Shown here one piece after another: positions 9,804 through 62,756 of a DNA stretch of 64,000 bases. The notes below the pieces were generated by a model, which did not search any database, had not been told where the DNA came from, and saw nothing but the letters and a program-made list of their open reading frames with translations. The position numbers were made by a program, and so were the translations under genes. The stretch comes from a virus. The stretch is from the IMG/VR virus record IMGVR_UViG_3300045988_139474, positions 88,908 to 152,907 of that record; one strand, given 5' to 3'. Each line of letters starts with the position of its first letter. The first letter of the stretch is position 1.

Positions 9804-9879
9804 ATTTCAACTCTTGTATCGCAGCCTCAAGTTTCATCAGTCAATGATTGATTTCAGGCTTCCAGCAGTCTGTTTTCAA

Positions 9880-40860: not shown

Positions 40861-40900
40861 CAGCAACCTGATTTCATCAGATTTCAGGTTGCTGTTCTTT
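40861..40900 (+). terminator. rho-independent terminator
   Basis: CAGCAACCTGA / 12-nt loop / TCAGGTTGCTG (11-bp stem), followed by TTCTTTC. Confidence 0.7.
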
Positions 40901-40924
40901 CGGCTCGCTTCCTCTTTGATTCGA

Positions 40925-40957
40925 TTCTTGCTTGCTACACTCACACCGCAAGCAGAA
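40925..40957 (+). repeat. CA-loop hairpin (H-box) copy
   Basis: TTCT-T-GCTTGC / loop TACACTCACACC / GCAAGC-AGAA. Confidence 0.75.
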
Positions 40958-41034
40958 CATTTCATGATGATTTTCGGCTCATGGCTGTTTCAGGTTAGTT
41001 GAGTGAGGTATCAGTTATGTGAGTGTTTGTTATT

Positions 41035-41200
41035 TAGCTTATTAGATAATATATTAATTTGTGGTGTGTATATTGTGTATCACATCTATGACATTGGAAT
41101 CGTATATTTCGTGGATAAGTTTCTAATAAATCAGGGAAATTTTTAGCCAAAATCCTGTATTTATGTTCCGATTCCTGTTCCCTACAGGATTCATTTCTCA
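41035..41200 (+). repeat. R-element copy 7
   Basis: Anchor at 41078-41091; V1 GATAAGTTTCTAATAAATCAGGGA. Terminal hairpin 41170-41192 (GATTCCTGT / TCCCT / ACAGGATTC). Confidence 0.9.
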
Positions 41201-41276: not shown

Positions 41277-44200
41277 ATGGTGAAACCTTGTATTCAAGAA
41301 CAATCCGTCTTGCGTTACAGCGACACTGCCTCGCATGATAAAGCAGGCATGGTGCCTCTGGCTACACGCTGGGGTGAAGTCCCTGAAGACCAGTATGCAG
41401 TCACTGCTGCTTCCTTGCTGATGTTGGAGAATACTGTATCCAAAGTCGAAGCATTGGTAGCAGACGCAGTTGACCTTGCAGCCCAAGCTGGTGAAAAAGC
41501 AGCTAAGGCTGCGGTGAAAGCAACCAACACATTAACAGACGGCTCGTCAACTTACAGTCAGCTCAACGGCGAAACAGGCATGAATATTACAGGATTGACT
41601 TACATTCCTGGTCTGTCCCGCATTGAATTGCGTTGGGCTTTACCGACTTATGAACGTGCTGCTGAAACTGTAATCTATCAAGCAACAACTGAAGCCTTTG
41701 AGAATGCTGTTGTTATCAAGAAGGTGGAATACCCAATCTCAGGTGCATTCATTGATGAAACTAAAGCCCGATATTACTGGGTGCAACTGGTTGATAAACA
41801 AGACCCAAGCCGTCGCGGTCAAGTATTTGGCCCAATCCTTGCCGACCCTTATGGCAATTTGGATAAATTGGTAGAGACCTTGCGCGGAAAGATTACCGCA
41901 ACCGAGCTTGATGCTGAGCTAGTACAAGGCCTGTATAAAAACATCCAAGAAGCAACCGACCGTACAATCAATGAACGTCTTGCTTCAATCCGTGAACGCT
42001 TGAATAATCTTGACAATCTGGTTGATTCTCGTGTTCAAAACTCGCTACAAGGCCTCAATCAGGTAACAGATGCGTTGGAACAGGAAATACGCCGTCTAGG
42101 TTCAAATTACTCAAAAGTTGTTGAGAATACCGAGAAAGCTCAAGGCTTGTTGGAAACTTGGACTTCCAAGACAGAAGAAGCCTTAGCAGGCGTTCAGAAA
42201 AATACTTTGGCCTTGACTGACGCCAATACGGCCTTATCGCAAACTCGTGAGACCTTGCTTGCTAAGGTAGGTGCTAACGAAGCCGCAATCAACAAAGAAT
42301 CCGAAGCAAGGACAACCCAGTATGAGTCGATAGCTGACGATATTAAACAGCTGCGAACTAAGACTGAAGCGAATGAAGCTGCTATCGTTGAGGAAGGCCG
42401 ATTGCGCTCAGACCAATTTGGCTCACAAGCTGAGACTTTGAAAGGCTTGCAAGCAACTTCTTCTACCCAAGCAGGCCGTATCCGTGAGTTGTCCCAGACT
42501 GTAGCCGATAACGAACGCTCATCAGCAACCAAGTTTGAAAACTTGAAATCAGGCTTGATGGGTAATCACCACTACAACTACAACTTTACAGCAGGCAAAG
42601 ATAGCTGGGAAGCCTCGCAAGGCGTATTGGAAGCTAAAACATCCAATAATCCGAGTGACCCTTCAAACACCCTGCTGAACCTGAAAACTAACGTCACCAC
42701 GCTGGTGTATTCTACGACTAAGACCGCTATCAACCTTGAGAATGTTTACAATGCTGTAGCGAGCCTCCGAAACATCGGTGCAAATCCCGTCAAAGTGCGT
42801 GTAGGCCTGATGACTTTTGACCATCGTGGCGAAGCTCAGACTCACTCAAATGTCGATTCCCGATATTATTGGGTCAGCGAGAAAACGCTTGCACCTAACA
42901 GTGGTTGGGCATCATTAGGCGGTGAAGCTAAGGGCGCAACCAAACAATGGCCTATCAACTCAGACCTGAAGCTGGCTGCTATCCCATTAGGGGCGAAGCA
43001 GGGCGTGCCTGTAGTTGAGATTGTAGGCGAGCGTGGCTCAGAGGTTGATATTGGTTCTATCGACTTGTTAGACATCTCAGCAACTGCCGCTGTTGGTTCT
43101 GAAATCTCAACCTTGAAAGAGACGACAACTACAGCCCTTGACACCCAAGCCAAAGAGTTTAAGAAGCTGAGCAGCAAATTCGGCGAAAACATCTCTGAGA
43201 TTGAGAAGCAGCAAAAGACTTTTAGTAGTGCTCAGAAAGCCCAAGCTGAACAGATTAACAACATGACGGCAAAAGTCGGTGCGAATGAAGCTGGCTTACA
43301 ACGACTTGATGAGGCTGTTACATCTGACCGTAGTTCAACTGCATTAGCCTTAGATAACCTGAAAGCTGGCTTCAACAGCACTATGGTTAATCACGTCAAG
43401 AATCCGTCTATGTCTAAGGATTCTACAGGCTGGACGGCTAACCCTACTGCTAAATTCAAGCGTGTTCCGAGTACAAGCTTGTTGCCTAAAGGTAAGACTG
43501 AGGCGGATGTTCCGTATTACACCCTCTTCAAATCAGAAGGCTATGTAGGCAAATTCTGGGGCACTGACCTGTTAATTGACTGTGATATTCCAAAGCTGGT
43601 ATCCCCTACAGACTTGGTTCATTTCTCAGTTAAAGTAGCCAATCCCGCCACGACTAACCTGACCCAAATTAAGGTTAGAATCAACGGCGCGCAAACTATC
43701 CTGTTGGGTGAAGTTGCTAAGGGTAAGTTTGAGATTGTATCTGGCTCAGTACCATTGCCTGCTAATACGACCAGCTTGCAGTTACAGATTTCAACCCAGA
43801 ACAGTGCGATTACTGAAGAGAATGCTATCATCATCGCTTTTCCTCAATGCCGAACCAATGCTGCACCGATTGAGTCTGATGCGAAGCTAGAACATCTGCG
43901 TCTGGCCGTAGCGAATGCTGACCAAGCCTTAGCTCGTGAGGTTAACAATTTACAGGTCAACTATAAAGCAGCTGCTGCGGCCATCAAAGAGGAAAAAGAA
44001 ACCCGCGCTAGTGAGACTGAAGCCCTTTCCCTGAAATACCAGACAATGGAATCTGAGCTCAACGGTAGCAAGGCTAAAATCCAGAAATTGGAAACAACAG
44101 TCACTACTGAGACAGAATCGGTCGCAAAACGTGTCCGAGAGATGGGCACAGAATTCAACGGCAAGATTTCAACCGTGACTGAGGTAGCTCAACGCGGTGT

Positions 44201-47200
44201 TGATAATGCTGCGGAAGCCTTACAGAAAGCTAATGATAACTTGGGTTTGGCTAAACGGTATGCTGACGACAAGTCGCTAAAAGCTATTACAGATGCTGAA
44301 AAAGCCGTCCGAGATAAGCTGAAATTAGGCGGTCGAAACCTAATTCGCAAGAGTAATCCCGACACCAACGATAGTCAATATTTACACGCGTTTGCTATTA
44401 CAGAAGCTCCAGCATTTGGTGATGATGTGACTGTAACTTTATGGGGCGATTTAGGCGAAGGCCGAACTGACTTTGCTGTTTACAACTCACGCGGTTTTGG
44501 TGAACTTGCTAAGTTGAAGAAGATTTCAGATGGTGTCTATCAAGCCCAGTTCAAATGGGCGGATAATACCTACACTGGTCCAGAAGACAAGCTGTCCAAC
44601 ACTACTCTGAACGTGTATGCCTATCCTAGTTCATCAACTTCAGCCTTTAGCATCAACAAGGTTAAGTTTGAGAGGGGTACAGTACCTACCGACTGGACAC
44701 CTGCACCAGAAGATGTTGAAGACAAGGTTGATAAGGTAAAAGTTGAGATTGAACGTCAGGTCAAAGAAGCAAAAGACTTGGCTGTTTCATCAAATGCTAA
44801 AATCAAGGAGCATGAGACCTCAATTAATAATGCTGAAAAGGCATTGAACCAAAAAGCCGTTGAATTGACGGGTCAGTTCAACCAAGCATTAACCGAAAAA
44901 GTTGAGGTGCTGAACAATGCAGTAGCTAAAAAAGCCTCAGGCGAAGAAGTCAAAGCACTCTTGGGTAAAGTGACAGCCGTGGAACGTGAGGTCATTGAGT
45001 CTAAGTCCAAAATCAATCAATTCTCCGAGACCTTAGACAACGCCCAACAGTCTAGCACCCAAATAGTGCAAGATGCTGAGTCAAGGTTCAAGAAGGTGGT
45101 TGAGAAAAGTGTAGAGACAATCAACCGAGATATTGGTACAGTTAGACAAGCTGCTGCTGATGCAGCCTCAAAAGCTGACCAAAATCTGCAAGCAGCCCAG
45201 AATTATGCTGACGGTAAGAAAAACGAAGCCCTCGACGCAGCCAAGACCTATGCAGACGGTCAGAAAACAGCTGCAATTCAAGCTGCTTCTGCTGATGCAA
45301 CCAAAAAGGCGAATGCTGCTAAAAAGGCTGCTGAGGATGCGCTGAACCCAGCTATTCAAGCAGCGCAACGAAAAGCTGATGAGGGTGTATCCAACGCTCA
45401 ACAAGCCGTACAAGCTGCTGAGAGGAACTTGCAAGCTGCTAAGGAGTATGCAGACGGTAAGACGGCGGAAGCCAAAAAGCAGGCTATCAAAGACGCAGAA
45501 GAGCAATTGAAACAGGCCAAAGAGTTTCTTCAAGGCAAAATTGCTGAGGCTAAGACCTTGTACGATAACTTGGAATTTGGCGGTCGCAACCTATTGAGAA
45601 AGACTAAAGGGCTGACCGACACTAAGTTTTGGAAGTTTTACAAGGATGCTCGACAGACTGTAGCAGAACAACCTAGAACAGATGATGTCCTGACTATTAA
45701 GACAGGCTCAGCATTCTGGGCAAGCTATCGTCAAACCTCAGTTGATAATCCGTTGATTGCTCTTGAAGCAAACAAGACCTACACTGTATCATTTGAGGCA
45801 AAATCTAGCAACACTTTAGACCGCTCAATTAGATTGTTTGTTCGTGAATATTTTGGCGATTCAAACGACAACAGGTTTTCCTATTACTTCACACCTCTAG
45901 TAGCTGATGATTGGGTTAAGCATAGTTATACATTCACTGTTGATGAGCTTAAAGCCAATCATAAGGCGTGGCATGTTATTTGGGAACTGACTGCACCTGA
46001 TACTCAACTTGAAATTCGCAACATGAAAGTTGAGAGGGGTAACAAACCTACCGACTGGACGCCTGCACCTGAAGATGTTGAAGGCCAAATTGCTGATGTT
46101 AAGCAGAAGGCTGAAAATATCGGTAATGACATGGAAAGGGCACTTGAACAAGTCAAGGGGCAACTTGAGACCAGAATCCAGGAGGCCGAAAAGAAAGCTA
46201 CTGACGCTGAGTCTAAAGTCAACAACTACACCAAAACGAAGGACACTGAGGTCAGCGCAATGGCTGAAAGTGTCAGGGGATTGGAAGGCAAGTTTGTAGA
46301 AGAAGCTGAGAAAGTCCGTGCTACAGTGACGACAGCCATCAACGACATCCAGATAGGCGGTCGAAACTTAGCTAAAGATTCGTACAATCCAAACAAGGAT
46401 AAACACGGCTATCTGAAAGCATACCGTATTACCAAAGCTCCTGAGTATGGCGACAAAGTTACAGTCACTGTATGGGGTGAATTAGGTGATACCCGAAACG
46501 GTCAGATTGGTGTGTACAATACTTTCGGTTATGGTGAGCTATTCAAGCTGACTAAGATTGCAGACGGCGTATGGCGTGGTCAAGGCTTTTGGAATAAACA
46601 TACTTCACCAATTGCTGGTGGCCAAGAACGCCAGAACGAAACCCTGAATCTGTATGCATATCCAAATGATAATACAGACAGGAATTTAGTCAATAACCTG
46701 TTTACTCATGTGAAGTTTGAGCTGGGTAACAAGGCTACAGACTGGACGCCTGCGCCTGAAGACCTTGAGAGCAAGATTGAGGACATCACCACATGGAAGA
46801 TTTCCGCCCAATCAGCACTTGAGCAGGTTCAACGGACGGTTAATAGCGCGCAAGGTTCAGCAGCTACACTTAATGATGCCTTGTCTGCTCGTTTCAATGA
46901 GGCGAAAACTCAAACGCGCAGAGAAGTCCGTGAAGAGTTGAATCCAGAGATTGCAAAAGCTAAGAAAGCTGGCGTGGATGCCGCAGGGGCTGTTAAGACT
47001 GAGCTGACTCCCAAGATTACAGACGCCAAAGACCAAGCCGATAAGGGTGTTGCGGAGGCTAAAAAAGCTAATGACGCCATACCTCAGAAACTAAAAGAGG
47101 CTAAGGACTATGCAGACACCAAAAAGACTGAGGCGATTACAGCAGCGGTTACTGAGGCGCGTGATTGGAAAGCAGTCAATGCTAGAACTGACCTGAATAC

Positions 47201-50200
47201 TCTGAAAGAAACAGGCCGATTCTTCATTAAAGCAACAGCCAATCCGAATGCGCCGATTAACAACTGGCTGTACGTTACAGTTGATAAAGGCACTGACAGC
47301 AGGATTACCCAGAAGATTCAAGCTGATAATGACCCTAACATCCGCTATTACCGATATTTCAACGGTAGCAGTTGGACTGATTGGGTCAAAGAAGCTAACC
47401 TGTCTGATGTTAATGCTGTTGACGGCAAGGTGACTGAGACTAACAAGCGGATAGACAATCTGCGTGTGAGCGGTCGAAACCTTTTGGCTGCTACTCGTAA
47501 GCTGACTGCATTCTACAAGGGTGTGAATGTTTGGCATTACGCTAAACACCCTGACGAAAGGCAAGAAAGACTTGAGCCGATTTCGTCAGGTGACGGCTAT
47601 GAATACCTTGACGCGGATAAGCAACCTGCTAATACCTCAACTAATTACGTTCAATTGATTAGTAGAGTAGCAGGCCGTTGGGTCAATTGGCATCAGTACA
47701 GTAGAGAGGGTAGCAGGGCAGCTAGAGACGATAGCTCACCAACATTAGCTAAAGTCCAATCAGGTCGTTGGTACACTTTGAGTTGCGAAGTTAGAAAGAC
47801 AGCAACCAGTCCTAATACCCGATTGCAATTGAACTTGAGGGAATACTACACGACTTCAGGATTCAAAGACAATGGTGGTTGGGTTGACGTAAATTCTACC
47901 GAATGGCAACAGGTTCATGTAACTGTATTTGTTGAATACGGTCGAGGAATCTTGGGTCATGACTACTGGCTCGCCTACTTTGAGCTGTATGATGTCGGTG
48001 AAGTCCATATCCGCAAGCCGATGTTGGTTGAAGCTAATATCCCAGCCGATTGGTCAGAAGCTCCTGAGGATTTGGAACGCACTGAGATTGAATTCTCTGC
48101 TGACTTGCAAGAGTTCAAATCAACACTAGCAGATAACCGCAAATCTTTAGCTAGGCAAATGACACAATTGGAGGCAGGTTTAGGTATTTCTGCCAACCTG
48201 ATAGCCGATTCCGAGTTTGTCGAGGGCTTATCTGAGCAGGCATTTACTGAAGACAGTAATACAACTGGCTATGTGCGAGGTATAGTAGCTGTTGATAATG
48301 GTAGGTCGCCCAAAAACTTCCTGCCTAATAAGGCTGTCCGCGATATCAATGTTGGTTATGTAGGCCGTCTGAACGAAGCTAATGACTCAAACTGCTATTT
48401 CGGTACTTATAACGTCCCTATAATCCCAGGCATTTACCAATACAGCATTTATGTCCGCAATGACGCTAAAGTAACTGCTGATGTGTATGCTAACTTCCTT
48501 GACGAAAACCGCAGTCAACTAGCTCAGCCTGAAAGTAAGTATTGGAAGGACGATTTTGGCCCAAGAACGATTCAGCCTGCACCAGCCAAGCCTGCTGGTC
48601 AACAGTTGACTTTAGGTGACTTCACTAGGGTTGTATTTAACATTGATACAACTCATATGACTAATCTGCACTACACCAGGATTGTCGTCAGACTGAACTC
48701 AGTACCAGCCAATAAGGTCGGAGAGAATGTTGTATTGTTCTGCCGTCCTCAAATCGTCAAGATTAAGAAGCTGGAACTGGCGGATGTAGTTGAGTACACA
48801 CCTGGCCCAAGCAGGACTTCAGCCAAAGCCTTATTTACTGAGGAACGCCAAGCAAGGACAACTGAAACAGATAGCCTTGTGAAGCAGATTACCAAAGGCT
48901 CAGCCAAATTCCCGAATGGTACAGGCGACATAAATCAGGTCAGCGTGGTTATGAATCAAATCATGACTGCAACAGCCAATAAGGTCACTGCTGATTTGAC
49001 TAAGAAGTATCAGTTAGATATTGGTGGAGACAACTTGGTTGAAAACTCTGACTTCAAGGCTTACGAAAACATACAGTCATACCCTAACTCAACCTCAAGA
49101 AACAAGACCGCTACAATCTATCAATACATGTACCCAAACGCAGGCACTATGACGCCACTCATCATTCCAGATGTTGGTTTGAACGGCTCAAATGCTCTGC
49201 GAGTATCTTGGACTGAATTCCCTGAATTCCAGAACAAGGGGCTACAGATAGTATTTAGCAAAAAGACTTGGGCAAGAGGTCAGTTTTACATCTTAGCGGT
49301 CGCTGCAAGGCTTCCTGCAGGTGTAACTACTAGAGGTTGTCGAGTAAGGTTGGACGTTTCTAATGCGCCTTTCTGGCAAGATGTTGAATACCTGAATCAA
49401 CCTGAACTGACTAACGATTGGCAGTGGACTATCTGTAAGGCTCGCAAGACTCAAGAAGATAACCTCAACCAATTGTTTATCTCAGTCAACGGTGCTAATA
49501 GCCCGTCATTAAGAAGCGTTGAATTCTGCCTCCCTTATGCTAGTCAAGGTTCTACTTGGGGCGGTTACAAGCCACCTACAATCTCAGCTGTCTTAACAGA
49601 GACGAAAGAGATTGCACTTGATGCTCAAGGCAAGGTCAATGCTAAAATCGGTATGACGGTTGATGCAGGCGGTCGAGTTATCGGTTGGGAAGCTCAGAAT
49701 AGAAACGGCTCAACTGAGTTTAATGTGTTGGCTGATAAATTCCGAGTATTGAACAGCTTGAATCAAGGTGGTTCTCCTTTCACTATTGAAAACGGCGAAG
49801 TTGTATTCAAGGGTAAAGTGCGGTTTTCAAACGTTCAAGACCCTCCAGCCATTCCTAAAGTGCCGATAACTATCACGGCTGTAGGTGTGTCCAATCACCT
49901 GGATGTAGCCAAGCGAGTAGCACTGCTGACTACAGATACCAGAGACTTGCACCGCTCAAGTAATGGTCGAGGTGTTTGGTTGTCCGTAATCAATAACCAG
50001 ACAGGCACATTGATATCCAATGTCCTGTACGATACCTACACGGCTGCTGGCTGTACCGCATTTGCTAATGCAGTCAATAGCTTGAATCGAGGTAGCAATC
50101 TGGTAATTGTGAGGTCACAAGATGCGTCAATGGCTGATAACCAAGACTTCATAAGGGCTTTGAATAGCTTGGCAGCTGGCTTTGGTAATAACGTCAACAA

Positions 50201-51740
50201 GGCTTTGAAAAGCGAGGTTAGAACTAGCTTCAGCCTGATTAGCCAAGTCATTGGTACTGACCGCTGTACGTCAGAAGCTATTGATGGTCGTAAGAATCCT
50301 GACCAAGTTGCGGCTGTATGCTCAGGCTTGTTGAAAGACGGCGTTTACTCGTTCATTTCAGCACCTACAAACAACAGTCAAACCAGCTTAGTTGATATTG
50401 CGGAAGCTGAGGCCAATAAAAAGGCTAATGCAGCCAAAAAGGCTATTGAGGATACCTGGAGTCCTACAATCAATGAAGCTTTGACTAAAGCCAAAAAGGG
50501 TGTTGAGGAAGCTGATAAAGCCAATAAAGCAATACCTGAGAAGCTGAAAGAGGCTAAGGACTATGCTGATGATCAAAGAATAGAGGCAATCAAGAAAGCT
50601 GGTGAAGCAGCAGGCGAAAAGATTAAGCAAGCCAAAACTGATGTTAAAAATGACTTAGCACCTGTAATCAATCAAGCCAAGACTGACGCGATTACAGAAG
50701 CCCGACAATCTGTAGTATTCACAACTGCTCAAGACCTAAACAGTCTGGCTAATTCGGGTAGTTATGTAATCAAAGCAGCCAATAATCCGAATGCCCCGAT
50801 AACTAACTGGTTATTTGTTACAGTTGAGGGTGACGGTCGTGACCGCATTTTACAGACCGTGACTCGAGACAACGACAGTACAGTCCGTTACACTCGCAGA
50901 AAGGTTGGCGGTACATGGTCAGATTGGGCTAAAGAGGTCAGTGCTGATGACGTTCAACAGTCAATTTCAGCTTTGAAGATACCGAATGTGTTGTATGCTC
51001 AAGGGGCTTACAATAACAGCTATGCTCAGATGAAAGTATCAACTCCTTCTGGAATCCGCAATCTACCGATTGCAGATAACATAGGTATTGCGGTACAGAT
51101 TCTGAACATTTCAACGCTGGGTGTTGAGTTTGCTAAAGTCTATCCTGCTAATGCTACCAGCTATGCTCAGTTGGCTGCTGATTTAAGTAAGACCGCCTAC
51201 AACGGCAAGATAGTCATGATTGTATCTAGGGCTAATGTCGGTAGAGTGGACGATACCAACCTGAGGTCAGCTTTGCGTAGAGCAGGTTCAACAGACCTGA
51301 TTTACAACACGCTGAACAAGCGAGGCAACAATACATTTGCTTTGATTGGTAAGATTGGTTCAGAAGGCTCAGCCCAAGAATCTATCATGGCTGTTGGAGG
51401 TTCAGGTGGTGTCTTTGGCGATTTCGCTCAGGTTTCTGCAGTTTGGAACAACGGCGATTTAATGCCAGGCAGTCAGACACTGATTGACGGCGGTAGGATT
51501 ACAACCAATTCTATCACTGCTAATCAAATTAGTGTTGGTAGCTTGTCCGCAATATCAGCTAACTTAGGTCATGTTACTGCAGGCTCAATTAACATTGGTG
51601 GTAAGTTTAGAGTTGATAGCAATGGTGAAGTAACGATTAGTTCAGGCGGTTCTACTGGCTTGAAGATTACTAACCAACGCATTGACGTGTATGATGAAAA
51701 TGCTAGATTACGCGTCCGATTAGGCAAACTGGTTGATTAA
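41277..51740 (+). CDS. giant (3487 aa) modular tail fibre / adhesin
   Basis: ATG at 41277 with RBS AGGAG. Long coiled coils alternate with jelly-roll-like modules, each starting GGRNL and ending (K/E)xExGxxxTDWTPAPED (44328-44720, 45579-46083, 46356-46769, 47469-48077). Two pyocin-knob-like domains, two ILEI/FAM3-like domains, and a C-terminal fibre-tip-like repeat ITANQISVGSLSA. Confidence 0.75.
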   Translation: MVKPCIQEQSVLRYSDTASHDKAGMVPLATRWGEVPEDQYAVTAASLLMLENTVSKVEALVADAVDLAAQAGEKAAKAAVKATNTLTDGSSTYSQLNGETGMNITGLTYIPGLSRIELRWALPTYERAAETVIYQATTEAFENAVVIKKVEYPISGAFIDETKARYYWVQLVDKQDPSRRGQVFGPILADPYGNLDKLVETLRGKITATELDAELVQGLYKNIQEATDRTINERLASIRERLNNLDNLVDSRVQNSLQGLNQVTDALEQEIRRLGSNYSKVVENTEKAQGLLETWTSKTEEALAGVQKNTLALTDANTALSQTRETLLAKVGANEAAINKESEARTTQYESIADDIKQLRTKTEANEAAIVEEGRLRSDQFGSQAETLKGLQATSSTQAGRIRELSQTVADNERSSATKFENLKSGLMGNHHYNYNFTAGKDSWEASQGVLEAKTSNNPSDPSNTLLNLKTNVTTLVYSTTKTAINLENVYNAVASLRNIGANPVKVRVGLMTFDHRGEAQTHSNVDSRYYWVSEKTLAPNSGWASLGGEAKGATKQWPINSDLKLAAIPLGAKQGVPVVEIVGERGSEVDIGSIDLLDISATAAVGSEISTLKETTTTALDTQAKEFKKLSSKFGENISEIEKQQKTFSSAQKAQAEQINNMTAKVGANEAGLQRLDEAVTSDRSSTALALDNLKAGFNSTMVNHVKNPSMSKDSTGWTANPTAKFKRVPSTSLLPKGKTEADVPYYTLFKSEGYVGKFWGTDLLIDCDIPKLVSPTDLVHFSVKVANPATTNLTQIKVRINGAQTILLGEVAKGKFEIVSGSVPLPANTTSLQLQISTQNSAITEENAIIIAFPQCRTNAAPIESDAKLEHLRLAVANADQALAREVNNLQVNYKAAAAAIKEEKETRASETEALSLKYQTMESELNGSKAKIQKLETTVTTETESVAKRVREMGTEFNGKISTVTEVAQRGVDNAAEALQKANDNLGLAKRYADDKSLKAITDAEKAVRDKLKLGGRNLIRKSNPDTNDSQYLHAFAITEAPAFGDDVTVTLWGDLGEGRTDFAVYNSRGFGELAKLKKISDGVYQAQFKWADNTYTGPEDKLSNTTLNVYAYPSSSTSAFSINKVKFERGTVPTDWTPAPEDVEDKVDKVKVEIERQVKEAKDLAVSSNAKIKEHETSINNAEKALNQKAVELTGQFNQALTEKVEVLNNAVAKKASGEEVKALLGKVTAVEREVIESKSKINQFSETLDNAQQSSTQIVQDAESRFKKVVEKSVETINRDIGTVRQAAADAASKADQNLQAAQNYADGKKNEALDAAKTYADGQKTAAIQAASADATKKANAAKKAAEDALNPAIQAAQRKADEGVSNAQQAVQAAERNLQAAKEYADGKTAEAKKQAIKDAEEQLKQAKEFLQGKIAEAKTLYDNLEFGGRNLLRKTKGLTDTKFWKFYKDARQTVAEQPRTDDVLTIKTGSAFWASYRQTSVDNPLIALEANKTYTVSFEAKSSNTLDRSIRLFVREYFGDSNDNRFSYYFTPLVADDWVKHSYTFTVDELKANHKAWHVIWELTAPDTQLEIRNMKVERGNKPTDWTPAPEDVEGQIADVKQKAENIGNDMERALEQVKGQLETRIQEAEKKATDAESKVNNYTKTKDTEVSAMAESVRGLEGKFVEEAEKVRATVTTAINDIQIGGRNLAKDSYNPNKDKHGYLKAYRITKAPEYGDKVTVTVWGELGDTRNGQIGVYNTFGYGELFKLTKIADGVWRGQGFWNKHTSPIAGGQERQNETLNLYAYPNDNTDRNLVNNLFTHVKFELGNKATDWTPAPEDLESKIEDITTWKISAQSALEQVQRTVNSAQGSAATLNDALSARFNEAKTQTRREVREELNPEIAKAKKAGVDAAGAVKTELTPKITDAKDQADKGVAEAKKANDAIPQKLKEAKDYADTKKTEAITAAVTEARDWKAVNARTDLNTLKETGRFFIKATANPNAPINNWLYVTVDKGTDSRITQKIQADNDPNIRYYRYFNGSSWTDWVKEANLSDVNAVDGKVTETNKRIDNLRVSGRNLLAATRKLTAFYKGVNVWHYAKHPDERQERLEPISSGDGYEYLDADKQPANTSTNYVQLISRVAGRWVNWHQYSREGSRAARDDSSPTLAKVQSGRWYTLSCEVRKTATSPNTRLQLNLREYYTTSGFKDNGGWVDVNSTEWQQVHVTVFVEYGRGILGHDYWLAYFELYDVGEVHIRKPMLVEANIPADWSEAPEDLERTEIEFSADLQEFKSTLADNRKSLARQMTQLEAGLGISANLIADSEFVEGLSEQAFTEDSNTTGYVRGIVAVDNGRSPKNFLPNKAVRDINVGYVGRLNEANDSNCYFGTYNVPIIPGIYQYSIYVRNDAKVTADVYANFLDENRSQLAQPESKYWKDDFGPRTIQPAPAKPAGQQLTLGDFTRVVFNIDTTHMTNLHYTRIVVRLNSVPANKVGENVVLFCRPQIVKIKKLELADVVEYTPGPSRTSAKALFTEERQARTTETDSLVKQITKGSAKFPNGTGDINQVSVVMNQIMTATANKVTADLTKKYQLDIGGDNLVENSDFKAYENIQSYPNSTSRNKTATIYQYMYPNAGTMTPLIIPDVGLNGSNALRVSWTEFPEFQNKGLQIVFSKKTWARGQFYILAVAARLPAGVTTRGCRVRLDVSNAPFWQDVEYLNQPELTNDWQWTICKARKTQEDNLNQLFISVNGANSPSLRSVEFCLPYASQGSTWGGYKPPTISAVLTETKEIALDAQGKVNAKIGMTVDAGGRVIGWEAQNRNGSTEFNVLADKFRVLNSLNQGGSPFTIENGEVVFKGKVRFSNVQDPPAIPKVPITITAVGVSNHLDVAKRVALLTTDTRDLHRSSNGRGVWLSVINNQTGTLISNVLYDTYTAAGCTAFANAVNSLNRGSNLVIVRSQDASMADNQDFIRALNSLAAGFGNNVNKALKSEVRTSFSLISQVIGTDRCTSEAIDGRKNPDQVAAVCSGLLKDGVYSFISAPTNNSQTSLVDIAEAEANKKANAAKKAIEDTWSPTINEALTKAKKGVEEADKANKAIPEKLKEAKDYADDQRIEAIKKAGEAAGEKIKQAKTDVKNDLAPVINQAKTDAITEARQSVVFTTAQDLNSLANSGSYVIKAANNPNAPITNWLFVTVEGDGRDRILQTVTRDNDSTVRYTRRKVGGTWSDWAKEVSADDVQQSISALKIPNVLYAQGAYNNSYAQMKVSTPSGIRNLPIADNIGIAVQILNISTLGVEFAKVYPANATSYAQLAADLSKTAYNGKIVMIVSRANVGRVDDTNLRSALRRAGSTDLIYNTLNKRGNNTFALIGKIGSEGSAQESIMAVGGSGGVFGDFAQVSAVWNNGDLMPGSQTLIDGGRITTNSITANQISVGSLSAISANLGHVTAGSINIGGKFRVDSNGEVTISSGGSTGLKITNQRIDVYDENARLRVRLGKLVD
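48362..48373 (+). repeat. DNA uptake sequence, AG-DUS 12-mer (inside giant gene)
   Basis: Exact match. Confidence 0.9.
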
Positions 51741-58737: not shown

Positions 58738-58980
58738 ATGTATGCCCAAGAGATATTAGACCAGCTAGAACGCGAAAAACGCCATCAAGAAACGCGCCCT
58801 TGTAAGTTTTGCTCAAGCCAACCTGAATTTCATCGCAGTGAGCGACTGATAGTGCTGCGTTGTTCCAAATGCTCAATGATTGCTAGAGGCTATATTTCCG
58901 TGGGCTGCATCAAATCAGACGGTCAAGCAAGAACAGCAGCAAGGAAGTTGCTGATCTCATGGAATGAGAGGAACACATGA
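58738..58980 (+). CDS. Lar-family restriction-alleviation-like zinc-ribbon protein
   Basis: 80 aa. PCKFCSS...LRCSKCSM...AARKLLISWNERN fits the Lar pattern (CxxC...CxxC...WNxR). Confidence 0.55.
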   Translation: MYAQEILDQLEREKRHQETRPCKFCSSQPEFHRSERLIVLRCSKCSMIARGYISVGCIKSDGQARTAARKLLISWNERNT

Positions 58981-59807
58981 TAAATCGTGAGATTTTGGAA
59001 GTATTTGATAATTGCGAAGGCACTAAGAATCCGCTCAAGACTCAATCAGTACTGCTAGAAAGCAAGACGGCTAAGGCTAAAGAGTCATTGGCTGAAGTGA
59101 CTGCGCTGTTATTCCCTGCTGAAAGTAGCGATTCGCCCAGACGGCCTCAAGCCTCTGCTCAGGCTTCCTCTTCCGATTCTTCTGCTAACTTGTCGCCGAA
59201 ACAGAAGCTCATCAATGAATTCTTGAAAGGTACAGGCCTTGCTAAACAGCATTTAAGCCGTATCAAGCAGGCTACCAACAAAATCAGCCATGCTACAGGC
59301 TTGATTAAGAATTATTCGATTGAGAATCTGGCGGACATTCCAACCAAGTTTTCCGTAGTCGGTCAATACATGGCTGATAGGGGGCATGATTGTAATATCG
59401 TCAATTCAGTCTTTGGGGTAATGATGGGCGGAGGCAAAGCCTTGCTAGAATCCTTAGGGATTGAGACGCAGTTCATTACCGACTTATCAAGCAAGCTCAA
59501 CGGCTTCGTTGAGTTAGCTAAGAGGGGTGCGGAATACGTCAATGGTGCTATTGAAAGGTTCAATGCACTGGTTGGGGATGTTGAGTCTTTCATTAACAAT
59601 CTTGAAAGCAGGATAACCAATCTTGAGCAGCTGATTAAAAGTACGATTCAGGCTGAAATAGACAAGCTGAAAGAATTGATGATACGCAATCTCAATGCTA
59701 TGTGGGCTAGGAATTTGCCTGGTTGGTTGAAGAATGATTGTTTCAAGTCAGTCTTGTCTAATGCTTTGTCAGATAAAGTCGGTCGGTTGACTGAGGAACT
59801 GCTATAA
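58977..59807 (+). CDS. hypothetical protein (last gene of the rightward block)
   Basis: 276 aa, helical, with an S-rich linker. Confidence 0.55.
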   Translation: MINREILEVFDNCEGTKNPLKTQSVLLESKTAKAKESLAEVTALLFPAESSDSPRRPQASAQASSSDSSANLSPKQKLINEFLKGTGLAKQHLSRIKQATNKISHATGLIKNYSIENLADIPTKFSVVGQYMADRGHDCNIVNSVFGVMMGGGKALLESLGIETQFITDLSSKLNGFVELAKRGAEYVNGAIERFNALVGDVESFINNLESRITNLEQLIKSTIQAEIDKLKELMIRNLNAMWARNLPGWLKNDCFKSVLSNALSDKVGRLTEELL

Positions 59808-59850: not shown

Positions 59851-59889
59851 GCCCCTTTAGCCGTGATTGGTTGAAGGGGCTTTTTTATT
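59851..59889 (+). terminator. rho-independent terminator
   Basis: GCCCCTT / 16-nt loop / AAGGGGC, followed by TTTTTTATT. Confidence 0.8.
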
Positions 59890-60062
59890 GCGACTAAAAT
59901 TCTGGCGATTTTAGCTGGGTGCAGAGGGTTGAATGGTAAATGATTTGGTCAGCGAGTAGAAATTGGCTACCGCGTTGAAATAGACAGCAAACTTTCGATT
60001 CTAGCGTGATTGGGGAGGGTTCAGCAGTCAAGTATCGGATTTTCACTCCTGTTGGGTCAGGG

Positions 60063-60074
60063 TTCAGACGGCCT
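60063..60074 (-). repeat. DNA uptake sequence, AG-DUS 12-mer (inside repeat module)
   Basis: Exact match on the minus strand. Confidence 0.9.
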
Positions 60075-60140
60075 AAGCTAAGATTTCATACTTCAGCAGG
60101 GTTGAGTAAGATTTCAAGTCATCAGGCTTGTTTTGATACT

Positions 60141-60166
60141 TGACTGGCCCATCACACAGCCAGTCA
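60141..60166 (+). repeat. CA-loop hairpin (H-box) copy
   Basis: Stem TGACTGGC/GCCAGTCA (a completely different stem sequence), loop CCATCACACA. Confidence 0.7.
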
Positions 60167-60254
60167 GACGGTTGATTGACTTCAGCAGTATCATGTTTTT
60201 CACTCTCATGGCTGATTGATGATTGAGAGATTACAGTTAGTGTTTGTTTATCAA

Positions 60255-60412
60255 TTTATTAGTAATATAATATTTGTGTGTGTGTGATATTGTATCACAT
60301 CTATGACATTGAAATCGTTTATTTCGTTGGTAAGCAATTGTTTCAGCAGAAGAATTTTTAGCCAAAATCTTGGACTTATGTACGGAATCTTGTAGGGAAC
60401 AGGGTTCATCTT
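60255..60412 (+). repeat. R-element copy 8
   Basis: TATAAT at 60266-60271; (TG)6 at 60275-60286; anchor at 60293-60306. Terminal hairpin 60385-60407 (GAATCTTGT / AGGGA / ACAGGGTTC). Confidence 0.9.
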
Positions 60413-60563
60413 TCAAGTCTCAACAGTCAGTAGCAAGTTTCATCACTCAATGTTGGGTGATGTCTCCTCGATTCCTGTTGTTGCTTGAGCAGGGGTTCAG
60501 ACGGTCGGATTTCTAGGTTGCTGCTACAGCAGGGTTGAGTAAGGATGAATGAGTGTTTTCATC

Positions 60564-60595
60564 TCTTGCCTGCTACATTCACACCAGCAGGCAGA
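60564..60595 (+). repeat. CA-loop hairpin (H-box) copy
   Basis: Stem TGCCTGCT/AGCAGGCA, loop ACATTCACACC. Confidence 0.75.
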
Positions 60596-60663
60596 CGGAG
60601 GAATCCTTGAAGCTGAGATTTCACTCTCATGGCTGTTTGAGGGAGGAATCAGGGCTGTTAGAA

Positions 60664-60828
60664 TTTATTATAGTTATTAATAATCTGTGATTATATATTG
60701 TATCACATCTATGACATTGAAATCGTATATTTCGTGGATAAGTTTCTAATAAATCAGGGGAATTTTTAGACAAAATCTTGGACTTATGTACGGAATCCTG
60801 TACCCGCCAAGCTTCATCTCTCAATCGT
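60664..60828 (+). repeat. R-element copy 9
   Basis: Anchor at 60701-60714; V1 GATAAGTTTCTAATAAATCAGGGG; V2 TGTACCCGCCAAG. Confidence 0.9.
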
Positions 60829-60982
60829 CAACAATCAGCCTCAAGTTTCACTAGTCAGCAATTGAATTTGCTTTTCAGCTTTCGGTCGGTGCATGAATGC
60901 TGCTAATCAGTATTGATATTAATGATTTTCAGCACTCAATCGTCATTCGGTCGGAGGGTGTCCCAACACGGTTGAGATTCAA

Positions 60983-61013
60983 TTCTTGCCTGCCACTCAT
61001 CAGTCAGGCAGAA
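60983..61013 (+). repeat. CA-loop hairpin (H-box) copy
   Basis: TTCT-T-GCCTG / loop CCACTCATCAGT / CAGGC-AGAA. Confidence 0.65.
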
Positions 61014-61182
61014 CAGTCTCATGCTTCAGCAAGCTTGAGGGAGGATTCACCCTTCAGGGCTGATTGCTAAGATTTCATGCTTCAGCAGTCTCAAATTCTT
61101 GTTTTCCAGTCTCATGGCTGTTCTCAAGTCTCATGGCTGTTGGGGATTGAGAGTGAGGGACTGATTCATGACTGTTAGAAGT

Positions 61183-61340
61183 TTATTAGTTATATAATAC
61201 CTGTTGTTTGTTATTGTATCACATCTATGACATTGAAATCGTATATTTCGTGACTAACTCGTTATAAAATCAGGGAAATTTTTAGCCAAAATCCTGGACT
61301 TATGTTCGGAATCCCAATAGTTACAGGATTCATTCCTCAA
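61183..61340 (+). repeat. R-element copy 10
   Basis: TATAAT at about 61193-61198; anchor at 61217-61230; V1 ACTAACTCGTTATAAAATCAGGGA; V2 CAATAGTTACA. Confidence 0.9.
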
Positions 61341-61448
61341 CCATTGCTGTTCAGTCTCAAGTTTCACCAGTCAGCAATTGGTTTCATGATTCCGTCTCAA
61401 TCACACCCTCAGGCCGTCTGATTCCATTCTCATGCATGACTGTCCCTC

Positions 61449-61482
61449 TTCTTGCTTGCTCACACTCACACCGCAAGCAGAA
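61449..61482 (+). repeat. CA-loop hairpin (H-box) copy
   Basis: TTCT-T-GCTTGC / loop TCACACTCACACC / GCAAGC-AGAA. Confidence 0.75.
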
Positions 61483-61659
61483 CATTTCATGCTTCAATTT
61501 CGTTGCCTCAGCAATCTCATGCTTGACTGTTTCCGTTTCTTAGGCCGTCTATTCTTCTGATTGATGATTCTCAGTCTCATGTTTCAAGGATTCCATGCTC
61601 ATGGCTGTTGTTTCTCAAGTCTCAGTCTCAATGGTGTGTTAAATGTTTGTTGATTCTTC

Positions 61660-61812
61660 TATTAGTTATTATATACTTGTGTTGTGTATTTGTATCACAT
61701 CTATGACATTGGAATCGTATATTTCGCGGATAAGTTATTGTTTCTCAATCGCTATTTTTAGACAAAATCCTGTCTTTATGTACGGAATCCCAATCGTTAC
61801 AAGAAGCAATCA
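61660..61812 (+). repeat. R-element copy 11 (3' hairpin degenerate)
   Basis: Anchor at 61693-61706; V1 GATAAGTTATTGTTTCTCAATCGCT; V2 CAATCGTTACA. Confidence 0.85.
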
Positions 61813-61970
61813 TTGCAAAATTGAAAAACACGCTAGAAGCGAAAATTAGCCACTCTGTATCTTGAGTCAAGTCGTTATCTGGTCAGAAGTCCTAAACTGT
61901 CTAATTTTCGATTCTCGCTGTCGCAAAATCCCGATTAGGCCGTCTTGAATAGCTACTCAGTAAATAGACG

Positions 61971-62010
61971 CAAAAAGAAAAGCCCAACACTCGATTAAGA
62001 CTGCTGGGCT
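61971..62010 (-). terminator. rho-independent terminator of the leftward operon
   Basis: On the minus strand: AGCCCA / 18-nt loop / TGGGCT, followed by TTTCTTTTTG. Confidence 0.7.
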
Positions 62011-62032
62011 CAGGGTCAGATTAGGCCGTCTG

Positions 62033-62404
62033 CTACTCTTGAATTCCGCATTGACCTGCGTATTTGCTGGAGGCTTTGAGTCGCATTATGATTTCACCGC
62101 TTGAATAGTGAGTGCGTGTGACTTGGTCGTCGCATAGCTTAGCAATGACTTGCGGGGATTTCAGCTCATTCTCGTAGCGTTTAACGCAGGCTACAATGGC
62201 TTCATCACGCGCTTTGGCTGCTTGTAACCAGCCACGCCTATGCTGGCACATATATGTCGGATTGTCTCTTGCGCGGTCTTGGTAAGTGACGAATAACGCA
62301 AGGCCTACTACAGCCGCAGCTGCTACTGCAACCAGCCCTATGAACCAGGTTAAGCTAGTGGAAGCCCCATCTTCGCTGTAAGGCTCAAAGTATTTCTTAG
62401 ACAT
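62033..62404 (-). CDS. hypothetical membrane protein ending QCGIQE
   Basis: 123 aa with one TM segment (WFIGLVAVAAAAVVGLALFV). Confidence 0.55.
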   Translation of the reverse strand: MSKKYFEPYSEDGASTSLTWFIGLVAVAAAAVVGLALFVTYQDRARDNPTYMCQHRRGWLQAAKARDEAIVACVKRYENELKSPQVIAKLCDDQVTRTHYSSGEIIMRLKASSKYAGQCGIQE

Positions 62405-62424
62405 CGCAATCTCTTTCGGCTCGT

Positions 62425-62520
62425 CTAGCGTGTGAAAGCGTCATAAGCTGCAATGGCTGCTACTGTAACACAACCTACAGCGGTGACGATTCCTACAAGT
62501 GTAAATAACAGTGTAAACAT
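62425..62520 (-). CDS. possible 31-aa hydrophobic peptide
   Basis: Minus-strand ATG at 62520 with RBS AAAGGA 8 nt upstream. Translation MFTLLFTLVGIVTAVGCVTVAAIAAYDAFTR. Below the ORF-track cutoff. Confidence 0.35.
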   Translation of the reverse strand: MFTLLFTLVGIVTAVGCVTVAAIAAYDAFTR

Positions 62521-62543
62521 TTCAATTGTCCTTTCTAAAGTGG

Positions 62544-62756
62544 TTATTTCTGAACACCGCATTGACTAGTGTCATGGGAGTGGGAAAGCTCAAGTTGCTG
62601 TTCGATTTTGTACCTTGAACAGGTTATTTCATGTTTGTATTCTAGGTATCTGATAGTCAGTAACATTGTAATTCCAAATAGTATCAGTATTACAGCACTG
62701 ATGAACCTCAACTCATTGATGTACTTAGCTTTTTCAGCTTCGCTCAATTCAATCAT
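62544..62756 (-). CDS. hypothetical membrane protein ending QCGVQK
   Basis: ATG at 62756 is preferred. The ORF-track start at 62789 is TTG and overlaps the upstream gene. One TM segment (FISAVILILFGITMLLTI). Confidence 0.5.
   Translation of the reverse strand: MIELSEAEKAKYINELRFISAVILILFGITMLLTIRYLEYKHEITCSRYKIEQQLELSHSHDTSQCGVQK

Follow-up and report, generated by a model that had tools for sequence, protein, structure and literature searches.

A gene-free stretch of about 2 kb at 59.9–61.8 kb of the window (the 64,000-nucleotide segment of IMG/VR record IMGVR_UViG_3300045988_139474 that was analyzed) consists of four modules of 408–516 bp each, arranged head-to-tail. Comparison with copies elsewhere in the window and in related phages leads us to favor, with slightly less than even confidence, a model in which the array is made up of four tandem copies of a standard transcription-start cassette that would drive non-coding or antisense transcription, with a copy number arising by unequal recombination. 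The phage is uncultured, and its genome is probably about 140 kb. Thus, the 2 kb of coding-free DNA that a preliminary description considered costly for a phage is real, but its cost would be lower than was assumed.

Five elements make up each module: a TCA/TCATG-rich tract that is strand-specific, a hairpin whose loop is CA-rich, the box CTCATGGCTG, a TATAAT-like box that is AT-rich, and a core of about 105 nt, termed R. The array and its flanks contain the following features.

59851–59889, + strand: intrinsic terminator closing the rightward late block; a 13-pair stem, then TTTTTTATTG
59900–60412, + strand: module 1; hairpin 60134–60175, CTCATGGCTG 60205–60214, TATAAT 60266–60271
59987–60011, + strand: left boundary motif GCAAACTTTCGATTCTAGCGTGATT; arm of an inverted repeat flanking the array
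60287–60391, + strand: R core of module 1; 14-mer 60293–60306, TATG 60302–60305
60413–60828, + strand: module 2; hairpin 60560–60602, CTCATGGCTG 60626–60635, AT-rich box at about 60664–60690, R core 60695–60800
60829–61340, + strand: module 3; hairpin 60980–61019, CTCATGGCTG 61111–61120 and 61130–61139, R core 61211–61315
61341–61812, + strand: module 4; hairpin 61446–61488, CTCATGGCTG 61598–61607, R core 61690–61791
61800–61970, + strand: conserved tail past the last R core, about 200 nt; AG-DUS-like AGGCCGTCT
61971–62010, − strand: terminator of the convergent leftward operon; T-run on the minus strand only

The four-copy arrangement was recovered mechanically from repeat families, motif counts and hairpins. 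Copies of repeat family D2 (74 nt; 60260, 60668, 61184 and 61660) and of family D3 (58 nt; 60354, 60762, 61278 and 61754) are both spaced by 408, 516 and 476 nt. Within the window, the 28-mer TTGTATCACATCTATGACATTGAAATCG has nine matches at three or fewer mismatches (0.00 expected), the 14-mer TATCACATCTATGA occurs 11 times without a mismatch and never with one or two (0.56 expected), and CTCATGGCTG occurs nine times (0.17 expected), with five of the nine inside the array. The two CTCATGGCTG boxes of module 3 reflect a 19-nt tandem duplication. CA-loop hairpins at 60134, 60560, 60980 and 61446 provide one for each module. The array went undetected by Tandem Repeats Finder, since similarity between whole modules is below 70%. 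Contig L033 independently carries the entire array at about 99–100% identity; therefore, the array is not an assembly artefact. The DNA between the cores is module sequence without gene remnants. CRISPR arrays consist of short (about 23–50 nt) identical repeats with unique spacers between them. This identity was rejected for the present array, in which the conserved unit is 105–160 nt and the intervening DNA is related module sequence with common motifs.

On its left side the array is bordered by the terminator at 59851–59889, which was also recovered by a terminator scan and comes after the stop codon of a 276-aa gene (58977–59807), the last in the 53-kb rightward block that spans 6761–59807. 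As had been described, all four modules point rightward and no plus-strand gene precedes the convergent operon; the largest ORFs are 65 aa (60627–60824, −) and 68 aa (61643–61849, +). Since no plus-strand gene follows the array, transcripts from the four putative starts would be non-coding, and the array would yield nothing beyond non-coding RNA or antisense read-through. The T-run of the leftward operon's terminator at 61971–62010 is present on the minus strand only, and thus plus-strand transcripts are not expected to stop there. Between the last core and this terminator, the conserved tail is 85–92% identical between lineages, even where identity across the array drops to 35–65%, and it may be a transcribed target of the array. 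It contains a 21-nt inverted repeat, I2 (61832–61852 with 61898–61918). Another inverted repeat, I1, pairs 59987–60011 with 61826–61850 (25 nt, 84% complementary), and near-perfect copies of TTTTCGATTCTNGC occur only at 59992(+), 61832(−) and 61905(+). An invertible segment between the 25-nt arms was rejected as the orientation is identical in all six lineages compared.

The module is not peculiar to the array: seven further R cores lie elsewhere in the window, at 5931, 6487, 9687, 10085, 25744 and 41078 on the plus strand and at 33665 on the minus strand. All 11 cores are intact, and 10 are on the plus strand, co-oriented with the 53-kb late block, where they stand upstream of terminase, portal, tail and fibre operons. 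The additional sites are as follows.

5460–6600, + strand: two tandem modules upstream of the small-terminase/terminase operon, back-to-back with leftward replication genes; R cores 5925–6029 and 6482–6586, hairpins 5728–5769 and 6282–6322
9343–10200, + strand: two tandem modules upstream of the portal-like gene at 10238; R cores 9681–9785 and 10080–10183, hairpin 9877–9919
25738–25843, + strand: lone R core 36 nt upstream of gene 25879; AT-rich box present, no hairpin or TCATG tract
33567–33671, − strand: lone R core between two plus-strand genes, facing the 3′ end of 32885–33547; same place in L006, L031 and L032
40855–41200, + strand: single full module upstream of a giant fibre-like gene with its real start at 41278; terminator 40861–40895, hairpin 40922–40963, CTCATGGCTG 40978, R core 41073–41177

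At four of these sites (terminase, portal, the 25879 gene and fibre) the R core is the last element before the operon start, and the ATG is 123–290 nt downstream of the core, counted from the G of TATG. Since the same cassettes front late operons, the earlier proposal that the modules are promoters is a reasonable one.

The R core is highly constrained. Its invariant blocks are TATCACATCTATGA..TTG.AAT.G, then TTTCG....TAA, then ATTTTTAGCCAAAATC.TG...TTATGT.C, with no insertions or deletions between the blocks in 68 distinct copies. Related metagenomic phages contain 80 full-length copies, none of which has decayed, and the array cores score 96–97 bits, equal to the gene-proximal copies. This conservation is not that of a protein. 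ORFs of 59–68 aa span the array cores and a minus-strand frame over the invariant block reads ...FQCHRCDT..., so we considered a missed gene, encoded by these small ORFs or by ORFs with unusual start codons. However, the best frame is open in just 17 of the 68 copies, stop codons or other changes interrupt the minus-strand ORF in two of the four modules (3 and 4), a common core-flank variant changes Cys to Thr with neighbouring residues altered non-conservatively, and the motif periodicity is 7 rather than 3. A missed protein gene is thus extremely improbable, and the description of the region as non-coding holds. The core also lacks the properties of a structured RNA: RNAalifold gave an energy of 0.0 and no stacked covarying pairs across the 68 copies, leading us to reject a put-like or riboswitch-like leader. 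No match to the Rfam 15 covariance models at the gathering score was found in the whole window (the only weaker one within the array, at E = 0.15, is a chance match), nor was any tRNA or tmRNA found there. The fixed length and invariant blocks instead suggest that R is a DNA recognition platform, probably a promoter. R does not appear to be a bacterial element. A scan of one genome per species with the core pattern gave a single match among 185,579 species, in Virgibacillus (L035), which is isolated and was taken as a chance match; a host intergenic repeat such as Neisseria Correia/NIME, or a prophage element, was rejected on this basis. A match in IMG/VR sequence L003 lies inside an unrelated gene and is also due to chance, and a blastn search of cultured phage genomes with the array gave no match.

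If R is a promoter, the polymerase that recognizes it may be phage-encoded. A contig that is 94–96% identical to the late genes of the window (IMGVR_3300045988_131213, the source of locus L041) encodes a 1412-aa β′ subunit with Rpb1 domains 1, 2, 4 and 5 and an intein, and its top 60 PDB matches are all bacterial β′. This gene is outside the window and was found in the relative's locus with an alignment query; a single IME392 β′ query matched nothing. The 21.5 kb around it (DNA polymerase, helicase and primase-like genes) contains no R core and no hairpin. The cultured relative IME392 is annotated with both β and β′. The presence of a phage-encoded RNA polymerase subunit in this lineage changes which polymerase the candidate promoters probably serve. 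A TATAAT-like hexamer (at least 5 of 6 positions) was found upstream of 67 of the 68 R copies, in an AT-rich box 20–33 nt from the core, and a full −35/−10 pattern (at least 9 of 12) was present in 34 of 68 copies compared with 8.3 ± 2.5 in shuffled sequences. The −35 region matches at 2–3 of 6 positions in most copies, and the AT-rich box lies at a distance from the core that differs between copies by about 13 nt; both observations weaken the assignment of any one element as the promoter proper. By eye, against the consensus sequences, σ54, other σ and σ70 promoters inside R were rejected owing to mismatches at essential positions; a scan hit within R (ATCACA-18-TATATT) falls on variable positions. 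A 3525-aa ORF raised the possibility that the phage is N4-like, with a virion polymerase acting at hairpin promoters. We rejected this reading because the ORF matches tail-fibre/host-range families, the phage has a tail sheath and the hairpin loops are 9–13 nt.

The CA-loop hairpin, located 140–250 nt upstream of the core, appears to be selected as a structure. Four of its nine stem pairs show compensatory changes (44 cells), and the observed covariation was reached in none of 500 shuffles. It lacks the signature of an intrinsic terminator, as it is followed by AGAAC, AGACGG or AGAGG rather than a U-run. The motifs of the adjacent tract are strand-specific (GATTTCA, 16 copies versus 0 for the reverse complement; AGTCTCA, 12 versus 0), and the TCA words recur with a period of about 7 nt, such that helical (10.5-bp) phasing is absent. 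Spacing of about 7 nt resembles that of the repeated triplets bound by ring-shaped RNA-binding proteins. Pairing of the CA loop with a GT-rich tract upstream of R was good in module 1 only and was dropped. No known model accounts for the hairpin and tract, which could represent a new accessory element; since they lie upstream of the supposed start, a plain promoter model leaves them unexplained.

These properties raise the alternative that each module is a non-coding RNA gene and that the array is a high-dose cluster acting as a protein sponge or decoy. An RNA of 215–375 nt would start at R, carry the TCA-heptad tract and be ended or stabilized by the CA-loop hairpin of the next module, with an RNA-binding host or phage protein as its target. 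Selection for single-strand base pairing in the hairpin stem, the strand specificity of the tract and a periodicity that is neither that of codons nor that of the helix would all be explained, as would the finding that every spacer between cores contains exactly one hairpin and no canonical terminator. Against this, the hairpin and tract are also present in first modules that have no upstream R (5728, 40922 and 60134), the hairpin lacks a U-tract after it, the predicted folds of whole modules do not stand out (z-scores of −2.1, −2.2 and +0.15), no Rfam match exists and the G·U versus A·C evidence for the strand is too thin. We consider this alternative improbable. A broader version, in which the modules constitute a new class of phage ncRNA made by the phage's own polymerase, whose hairpin and UCA tract titrate an RNA-binding or single-strand-binding protein of host or phage origin, is a more doubtful proposition still; geneless convergent arrays would then be sponge dosage clusters, and copies preceding operons would couple the element to late mRNAs. 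The discrete structured ncRNA cluster proposed earlier was not borne out given the lack of an Rfam match or a consensus fold in R, and the proposed decoy role found no direct support.

The geneless array was present in six of six lineages examined, in which the flanking genes are 80–99% identical, with three to five copies and never zero. Five near-identical or close relatives have 3, 3, 4, 4 and 5 copies, L014 being without the window's module 4, and the sixth lineage has at least four, the assembly breaking inside the array. Thus, copy number varies even between near-identical phages, one of the outcomes that the preliminary description had named as refuting a function of the array, although none of these phages is without it. 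A dose of four is therefore not conserved as such, an observation that runs against our model. Other loci vary as well: the number of copies is 1 versus 2 at the fibre site, 2 versus 1 at the portal site (with a single copy in L025 and L029) and 2 versus 3 in the divergent region. Because gene-proximal sites vary in the same way, the number of tandem copies appears to result from unequal recombination and not from tuning. Segments that vary within R are common to distant loci: module 1 shares its segment with the copy at 33665(−), and that of module 2 is identical to the segment of the fibre-gene copy at 41078. Overall, the earlier interpretation of the array is supported in part. Conservation of the array together with its intact cores argues against plain junk.

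Geneless R cores are not confined to the array. In L016, which has minus-strand genes only, the R(+) copies located at 7431 and 9204/9586 have no plus-strand gene and face a terminator or the 3′ end of convergent genes. A hairpin with a minus-only T-run, of the type at 61971–62010, follows geneless R(+) copies in L016, L017, L027 and L034, and geneless convergent R clusters occur at two junctions besides the array. The window copy at 33665(−) is a mirror case of a geneless convergent R. The gene cassette that borders the array (62033–62750), which comprises the presumed antisense targets, is missing from three lineages that retain the array (L008, L014 and L015), an observation that weighs against an antisense role. 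A promoter served by a phage polymerase would not be expected among genes that need to be transcribed ahead of the enzyme's synthesis. R is missing from the 21.5 kb around the β′ and DNA polymerase genes; however, R cassettes stand before a dUTPase gene among genes for nucleotide metabolism elsewhere, and R is thus not exclusively a late-gene signal. P0013 and L037–L039 were set aside as a different phage (29% GC) outside the lineage. The ends of the IME392 record are not at the equivalent junction, the 36-nt intergenic repeat of IME392 is unrelated, and a literature search on a Neisseria lytic myovirus and on IME392 biology yielded nothing useful.

The same comparisons bear on a second alternative, in which the cassettes act as promoters while the geneless array, a by-product of unequal crossing-over and gene conversion among dispersed cassettes, is not under selection for any function. 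It would persist as a harmless, continually homogenised structure and may mark the places from which gene cassettes between modules have been lost. We consider this possibility rather unlikely. Gain and loss at gene-proximal sites as in the array, the mosaic of variable segments between loci and the position of the array beside a variable gene cassette are all as expected for such shuffling, which the promoter-early stem-loop (PeSL) cassettes of T4-type phages also undergo (PMC2839356). On the other hand, loss of the array occurred in none of the six lineages, the array cores match gene-proximal cores in score and no copy has decayed anywhere, no gene remnants lie between the cores, geneless convergent clusters exist at two other junctions, and conservation is higher in the tail that follows the cores than in the array itself. 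We also considered that the array could be a replication or packaging landmark, with geneless promoters close to where the late region ends priming replication or marking concatemer processing. Both roles have been proposed for φOL and φOR of T7, single 23-bp promoters that lie at the physical genome ends, are used by a single-subunit polymerase and have no downstream gene, one of them following the last late gene. As geneless copies of a phage promoter they resemble the array, which differs in having four large cassettes and, presumably, a multisubunit-type polymerase. Cumulative GC skew peaks at about 61 kb, every module has an AT-rich segment, and contigs of relatives often start or stop within R clusters, which the repeats would explain as well. 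However, the same modules are found at seven or more other sites, some directly before genes, the skew shifts at the point where gene orientation switches, neither a terminal repeat nor a genome end was located in the available data, and the terminase genes are 55 kb distant. A landmark role, for which we found no direct support, is thus very unlikely.

In the model that we favor, R would be a DNA platform recognized by a phage-directed transcription machinery in a lineage that has its own bacterial-type β′. The AT-rich box upstream of R would serve as a −10-like element, and initiation would occur within or slightly upstream of the invariant block, where TATG is a candidate start by analogy only. 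Operons would be fronted by one to four such cassettes. Transcripts from the array would cross the conserved tail, pass the terminator that functions on the opposite strand only and enter the 3′ end of the convergent leftward genes. Such convergent or antisense transcription could insulate the late block from leftward read-through, and the neighbouring leftward genes would be damped once the phage polymerase became active. Unequal crossing-over and gene conversion between cassettes would set their copy number.

The closest known elements are the PeSLs of T4-type phages, which, like the R cassette, are dispersed intergenic elements combining a stem-loop with a promoter-like AT-rich segment, adjoin variable genes and differ between relatives in ways explained by recombination between copies (PMC2839356, PMC4122927). 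Their association with insertions and deletions is matched here by the 11 copies in the window, the 80 in relatives and the differing copy number at four loci. PeSLs are short, match the σ70 −35/−10 consensus and nearly always precede an ORF, and their GC-rich stem-loop lies within or beside the promoter and acts as a terminator (PMC2839356, PMC4122927). In contrast, R modules are 400–520 bp in length with an invariant core of about 105 nt and no good −35, their hairpin is 140–250 nt upstream and has no U-tract, and they can stand in tandem with nothing between them.

The late promoters used by the non-virion RNA polymerases (nvRNAPs) of jumbo phages provide a further comparison. The late promoter of φKZ is 5′-TATG-3′ with the G at +1, and sequences downstream of the start also matter (PMC4666361); that of AR9 is 5′-AACA-N6-T-A/G(+1) (PMC5449584). 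The R 14-mer (ATCA-CATCTA-T-G) contains the φKZ TATG and follows the geometry of the AR9 promoter except at one position (the AR9 −10 A is T), and the conserved block of R extends about 90 nt downstream, comparable to the downstream influence in φKZ. The split and highly divergent nvRNAP of jumbo phages differs from the single-ORF 1412-aa β′ found here, for which bacterial β′ is the best match, and we treat the resemblance as a lead only. In halovirus HF2, a conserved intergenic repeat is likewise described as a promoter; those repeats are 29–58 bp and function in archaeal transcription, and the abstract describes no geneless tandem arrays (PMC8707807). The predicted overlap of array transcripts with the opposing operon also resembles the excludon, in which a transcript from a promoter overlaps the 3′ end of an opposing operon (PMC7154746). 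That concept came from bacterial transcript maps, whereas the array overlap is predicted from sequence.

The literature searched contained no promoter for the bacterial-type RNA polymerase of this clade of 110–170-kb phages, relatives of Ralstonia RP13 and E. coli IME392. If R is that promoter, it would provide a concrete sequence for studying the enzyme, and one that is unusually long and invariant. The cassettes also look like recombination substrates that reshuffle the genome. If our model is true, geneless cassettes firing into opposing 3′ ends, found at several junctions, would offer a clear example, open to test, of how a phage may program convergent transcription.

The preliminary description had read 59.9-61.8 kb of the window as a tandem array of four repeat modules with no gene to serve. 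The array is real, as a repeat finder recovered four in-register copies of two segments.

Repeated segments of the array (+ strand)
60260, 60668, 61184 and 61660: 74-nt segment, spaced by 408, 516 and 476 nt
60354, 60762, 61278 and 61754: 58-nt segment, spaced by 408, 516 and 476 nt

Tandem Repeats Finder did not report the array because whole modules are <70% alike. An independent metagenomic contig (L033) carries the same four modules at ~99-100% identity, which excludes an assembly artefact. ORFs in the region do not exceed 65 and 68 aa. Both flanking terminators were also recovered: a scan detected the one at 59851-59889 (+), and the hairpin at 61971-62010 has a T-run on the minus strand only. 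A 28-mer core had 9 matches in the window (≤3 mismatches) vs 0.00 expected, and CTCATGGCTG occurred 9 times vs 0.17 expected, with 5 of the 9 inside the array. The 14-mer TATCACATCTATGA matched perfectly at 11 sites, and no site matched it with 1-2 mismatches.

Each module contains a conserved core of ~105 nt, R. A profile search of the window returned the same 11 R cores at 92-98 bits each, with none weaker at E ≤ 10.

R cores in the window
5931 and 9687 (+): R cores
6487 (+): leads to the terminase operon
10085 (+): leads to a portal-like gene at 10238
25744 (+): leads to a gene at 25879
33665 (−): the sole minus-strand copy
41078 (+): leads to the fibre gene, start ATG 41278
60293, 60701, 61217 and 61693 (+): R cores of the array

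Four copies are the final element ahead of an operon start, with the ATG 123-290 nt downstream of the G of TATG. A mechanically called ORF starts within an R core at 41163; the real fibre start is the ATG at 41278, which has AGGAG upstream. The minus-strand copy (33567-33671) lies between two plus-strand tail genes, and, read in reverse complement, its CATGGCTG-like box is the region of the start codon of gene 33724. In pattern scans, two IMG/VR contigs and 26 stretches of metagenomic DNA carried the core. Since a scan of 185,579 bacterial species, each represented by one genome, gave one match, in Virgibacillus, which we take to be chance, R appears to be phage-specific and not a host repeat. 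About 350 kb of related DNA contained 80 full-length copies and zero fragments.

Comparison of 68 distinct R copies revealed zero indels over ~90 nt and three invariant blocks, with segments between them that vary freely. The best reading frame was open in at most 17 of the 68, and a minus-strand ORF reading FQCHRCDT is interrupted in modules 3 and 4; a hidden protein gene in the array is effectively excluded. RNAalifold folded no part of R into a consensus structure, zero stacked pairs emerged from a scan for covarying columns, and Rfam and tRNA searches gave no match. Strict spacing, sequence-specific blocks and absence of pairing form the pattern that a protein-DNA platform would give. A TATAAT-like hexamer (5 or 6 positions matched) lies upstream of R in 67 of the 68 copies at a distance that varies by ~13 nt, and the −35 match is poor. 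The invariant 14-mer includes TATG, which is the late start motif of the jumbo phage phiKZ, and has, with one mismatch, the ATCA-N6-T-G geometry of the AR9 late promoter. We treat this resemblance as a lead and not as membership, because the β′ subunit of the R-bearing lineage is of the bacterial type.

Upstream of R, the module contains a hairpin with a CA-rich loop of 9-13 nt. A covariance model of this hairpin matched nine sites in the window, all on the plus strand and all within modules, and 59 sites (51 distinct) in relatives, each on the same strand as the R next to it. Practically every copy forms the six inner pairs. Compensatory changes occurred in 4 of 9 pairs (44 cells); none of 500 shuffles equalled the observed covariation and slid controls gave none or one, and pairing within one strand is therefore under selection. 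The hairpin was rejected as a canonical terminator, as no U-run follows it. The 250-350 nt of DNA between cores is made of strand-specific words (GATTTCA, 16 vs 0 for the reverse complement; AGTCTCA, 12 vs 0) with a period of ~7 nt, which is neither a codon nor a helical period. TCA words, on one strand only, are spaced by 7, 14-15, 22, 29 and 36-37 nt in 59.9-61.7 kb and the other inter-core spacers. SD-like sequences paired with ATG are frequent there (e.g. GAGGAGGATTCATG at 5611), and the ORFs downstream of them are not conserved.

The phage was considered as N4-like and this was rejected, as the 3525-aa ORF matched tail-fibre and host-range families and the window encodes a tail sheath, together with terminase, head protease and major head protein. 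The giant fibre- or host-range-like protein (~3490 aa) occupies 41278-51740. By terminase (57-60% amino acid identity) and sheath (~48% amino acid identity to the E. coli phages), the closest cultured relatives are Ralstonia phage RP13 and E. coli phages IME392 and EP_H11. The longest related contig (ODNI01000015.1) is 141.8 kb, with the window corresponding to its ~36-102 kb, and the genome is therefore probably ~140 kb. In that contig, ~9 kb beyond the right end of the window, a gene (L015 11352-12692, −) encodes the YadA head, stalk and anchor domains that typify trimeric autotransporter adhesins, an unusual cargo for a lytic-looking myovirus. The Neisseria DNA uptake sequences GCCGTCTGAA and AGGCCGTCTGA occur 8 and 9 times in the 64-kb window (for example, at 4119(−), 15214(−), 19169(+), 23146(−), 29715(−), 39129(+), 48364(+) and 60063(−)), against our own estimate of ~0.1 by chance for the 10-mer. 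These sites, which we take to be of the AG-type dialect, point to a host in the Neisseriaceae. Partial copies (CAGACGG) follow many module hairpins. Cumulative GC skew over 1-64000 is lowest at ~24-25 kb, near the solitary R core at 25744, and peaks within the array at ~61 kb; yet genes keep one orientation throughout 6.7-59.8 kb.

The annotation of IME392 includes RNA polymerase β and β′ genes. Using an alignment of β′ homologues as query, we retrieved a β′ locus on IMGVR_3300045988_131213, a contig with 94-96% identity to the window across the fibre gene and the late genes that follow it. The 1412-aa ORF (L041 7292-11530) contains Rpb1 domains 1, 2, 4 and 5, with an intein carrying an HNH domain between them, and its best match is bacterial β′ (E = 2e-78). 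The surrounding 21.5 kb encodes DNA polymerase A, a helicase, a Toprim protein and an endonuclease, and contained neither R core nor CA-loop hairpin. A phage-directed polymerase is the most likely reader of R. A second intein is found in a ribonucleotide reductase (L034 3053-5218). IME392 has its own 36-nt intergenic repeat, ACNNTTTAACAGCCTTTCG...AGAAAGAGCGG (L044 4141, 5216, 7935 and 9332; 104-116 kb), which has no sequence relation to R and may be that phage's regulatory cassette.

Cassettes also face opposing genes at a locus outside the window (L016) in which all genes, including a dUTPase gene, are on the minus strand; genes for ribonucleotide reductase, thymidylate synthase and ligase lie at other loci outside the window.

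R modules of L016
9204 and 9586 (+): nothing downstream except the terminator of convergent genes
7431 (+): points at a convergent gene's stop codon
four modules (−): ahead of the dUTPase gene, the normal arrangement

The copy at 33665(−), conserved in three other lineages, is the mirror case of the geneless copies. Cassettes aimed at an opposing gene's 3′ end are therefore a repeated design.

The preliminary description suggested that the array itself is functional. In keeping with this, it was absent from none of the lineages listed below; against it, copy number varied from 3 to 5.

Array copies
Window and L033: 4
L008: 5
L014: 4, of different composition
L004 and L002: 3
L015 (genes ~80% identical): 3
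L022 and L011: at least 4, the assembly breaking within the array

Sites close to genes vary in copy number as well (fibre, 1 vs 2; portal, 2 vs 1; divergent region, 2 vs 3). Module 1 shares its variable R segment with the 33665(−) copy and module 2 with the 41078 copy, whereas 41078 orthologues in four other lineages have a different segment; this pattern demonstrates gene conversion between cassettes. The leftward genes at 62033-62750 (123 and 81 aa), right of the array, are absent or replaced in L008, L014 and L015, which marks the junction as a hotspot where gene cassettes turn over. Beyond the last core, a 200-nt tail is more conserved than the array. The TTTCGATTCTAGCG motif (59987-60011, 61826-61850 and 61898-61918) flanks the array in inverted orientation and also makes up a 21-nt inverted repeat in this tail; the arrays of L004, L008, L015 and L022 contain a paralogue of this hairpin.

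The module anatomy is solid; its function we infer. We tentatively favour, at somewhat short of an even chance, the reading that the array is a cluster of transcription-start cassettes. Their output would be non-coding and antisense into the opposing operon. It would keep the two convergent blocks insulated and, from the time that the phage polymerase becomes active, damp the neighbouring leftward genes; recombination would set the copy number. A plain promoter model does not account for the hairpin and 7-nt tract, which are the best argument for a function at the RNA or single-strand level. That the cassettes are promoters and the array itself a neutral by-product of recombination, by analogy with the promoter-early stem-loop cassettes (PeSLs) of T4-type phages, would be an unlikely explanation, second to the one that we favour. 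The hairpin covariation and periodic tract are consistent with an ncRNA or sponge cluster; both features are also present in the first module of every series, with no R upstream, which counts against an RNA- or single-strand-level role, and we regard such a cluster as improbable. A replication or packaging landmark, for which the GC-skew peak and an analogy with T7 make up the entire case, is highly improbable.

Repeated promoter cassettes and gene-less promoter copies are already known in phages. What is new here is the size and invariance of the R core, its tie to a clade whose phage polymerase is of bacterial type, the upstream hairpin that covaries, the periodic tract, and geneless convergent clusters that recur.
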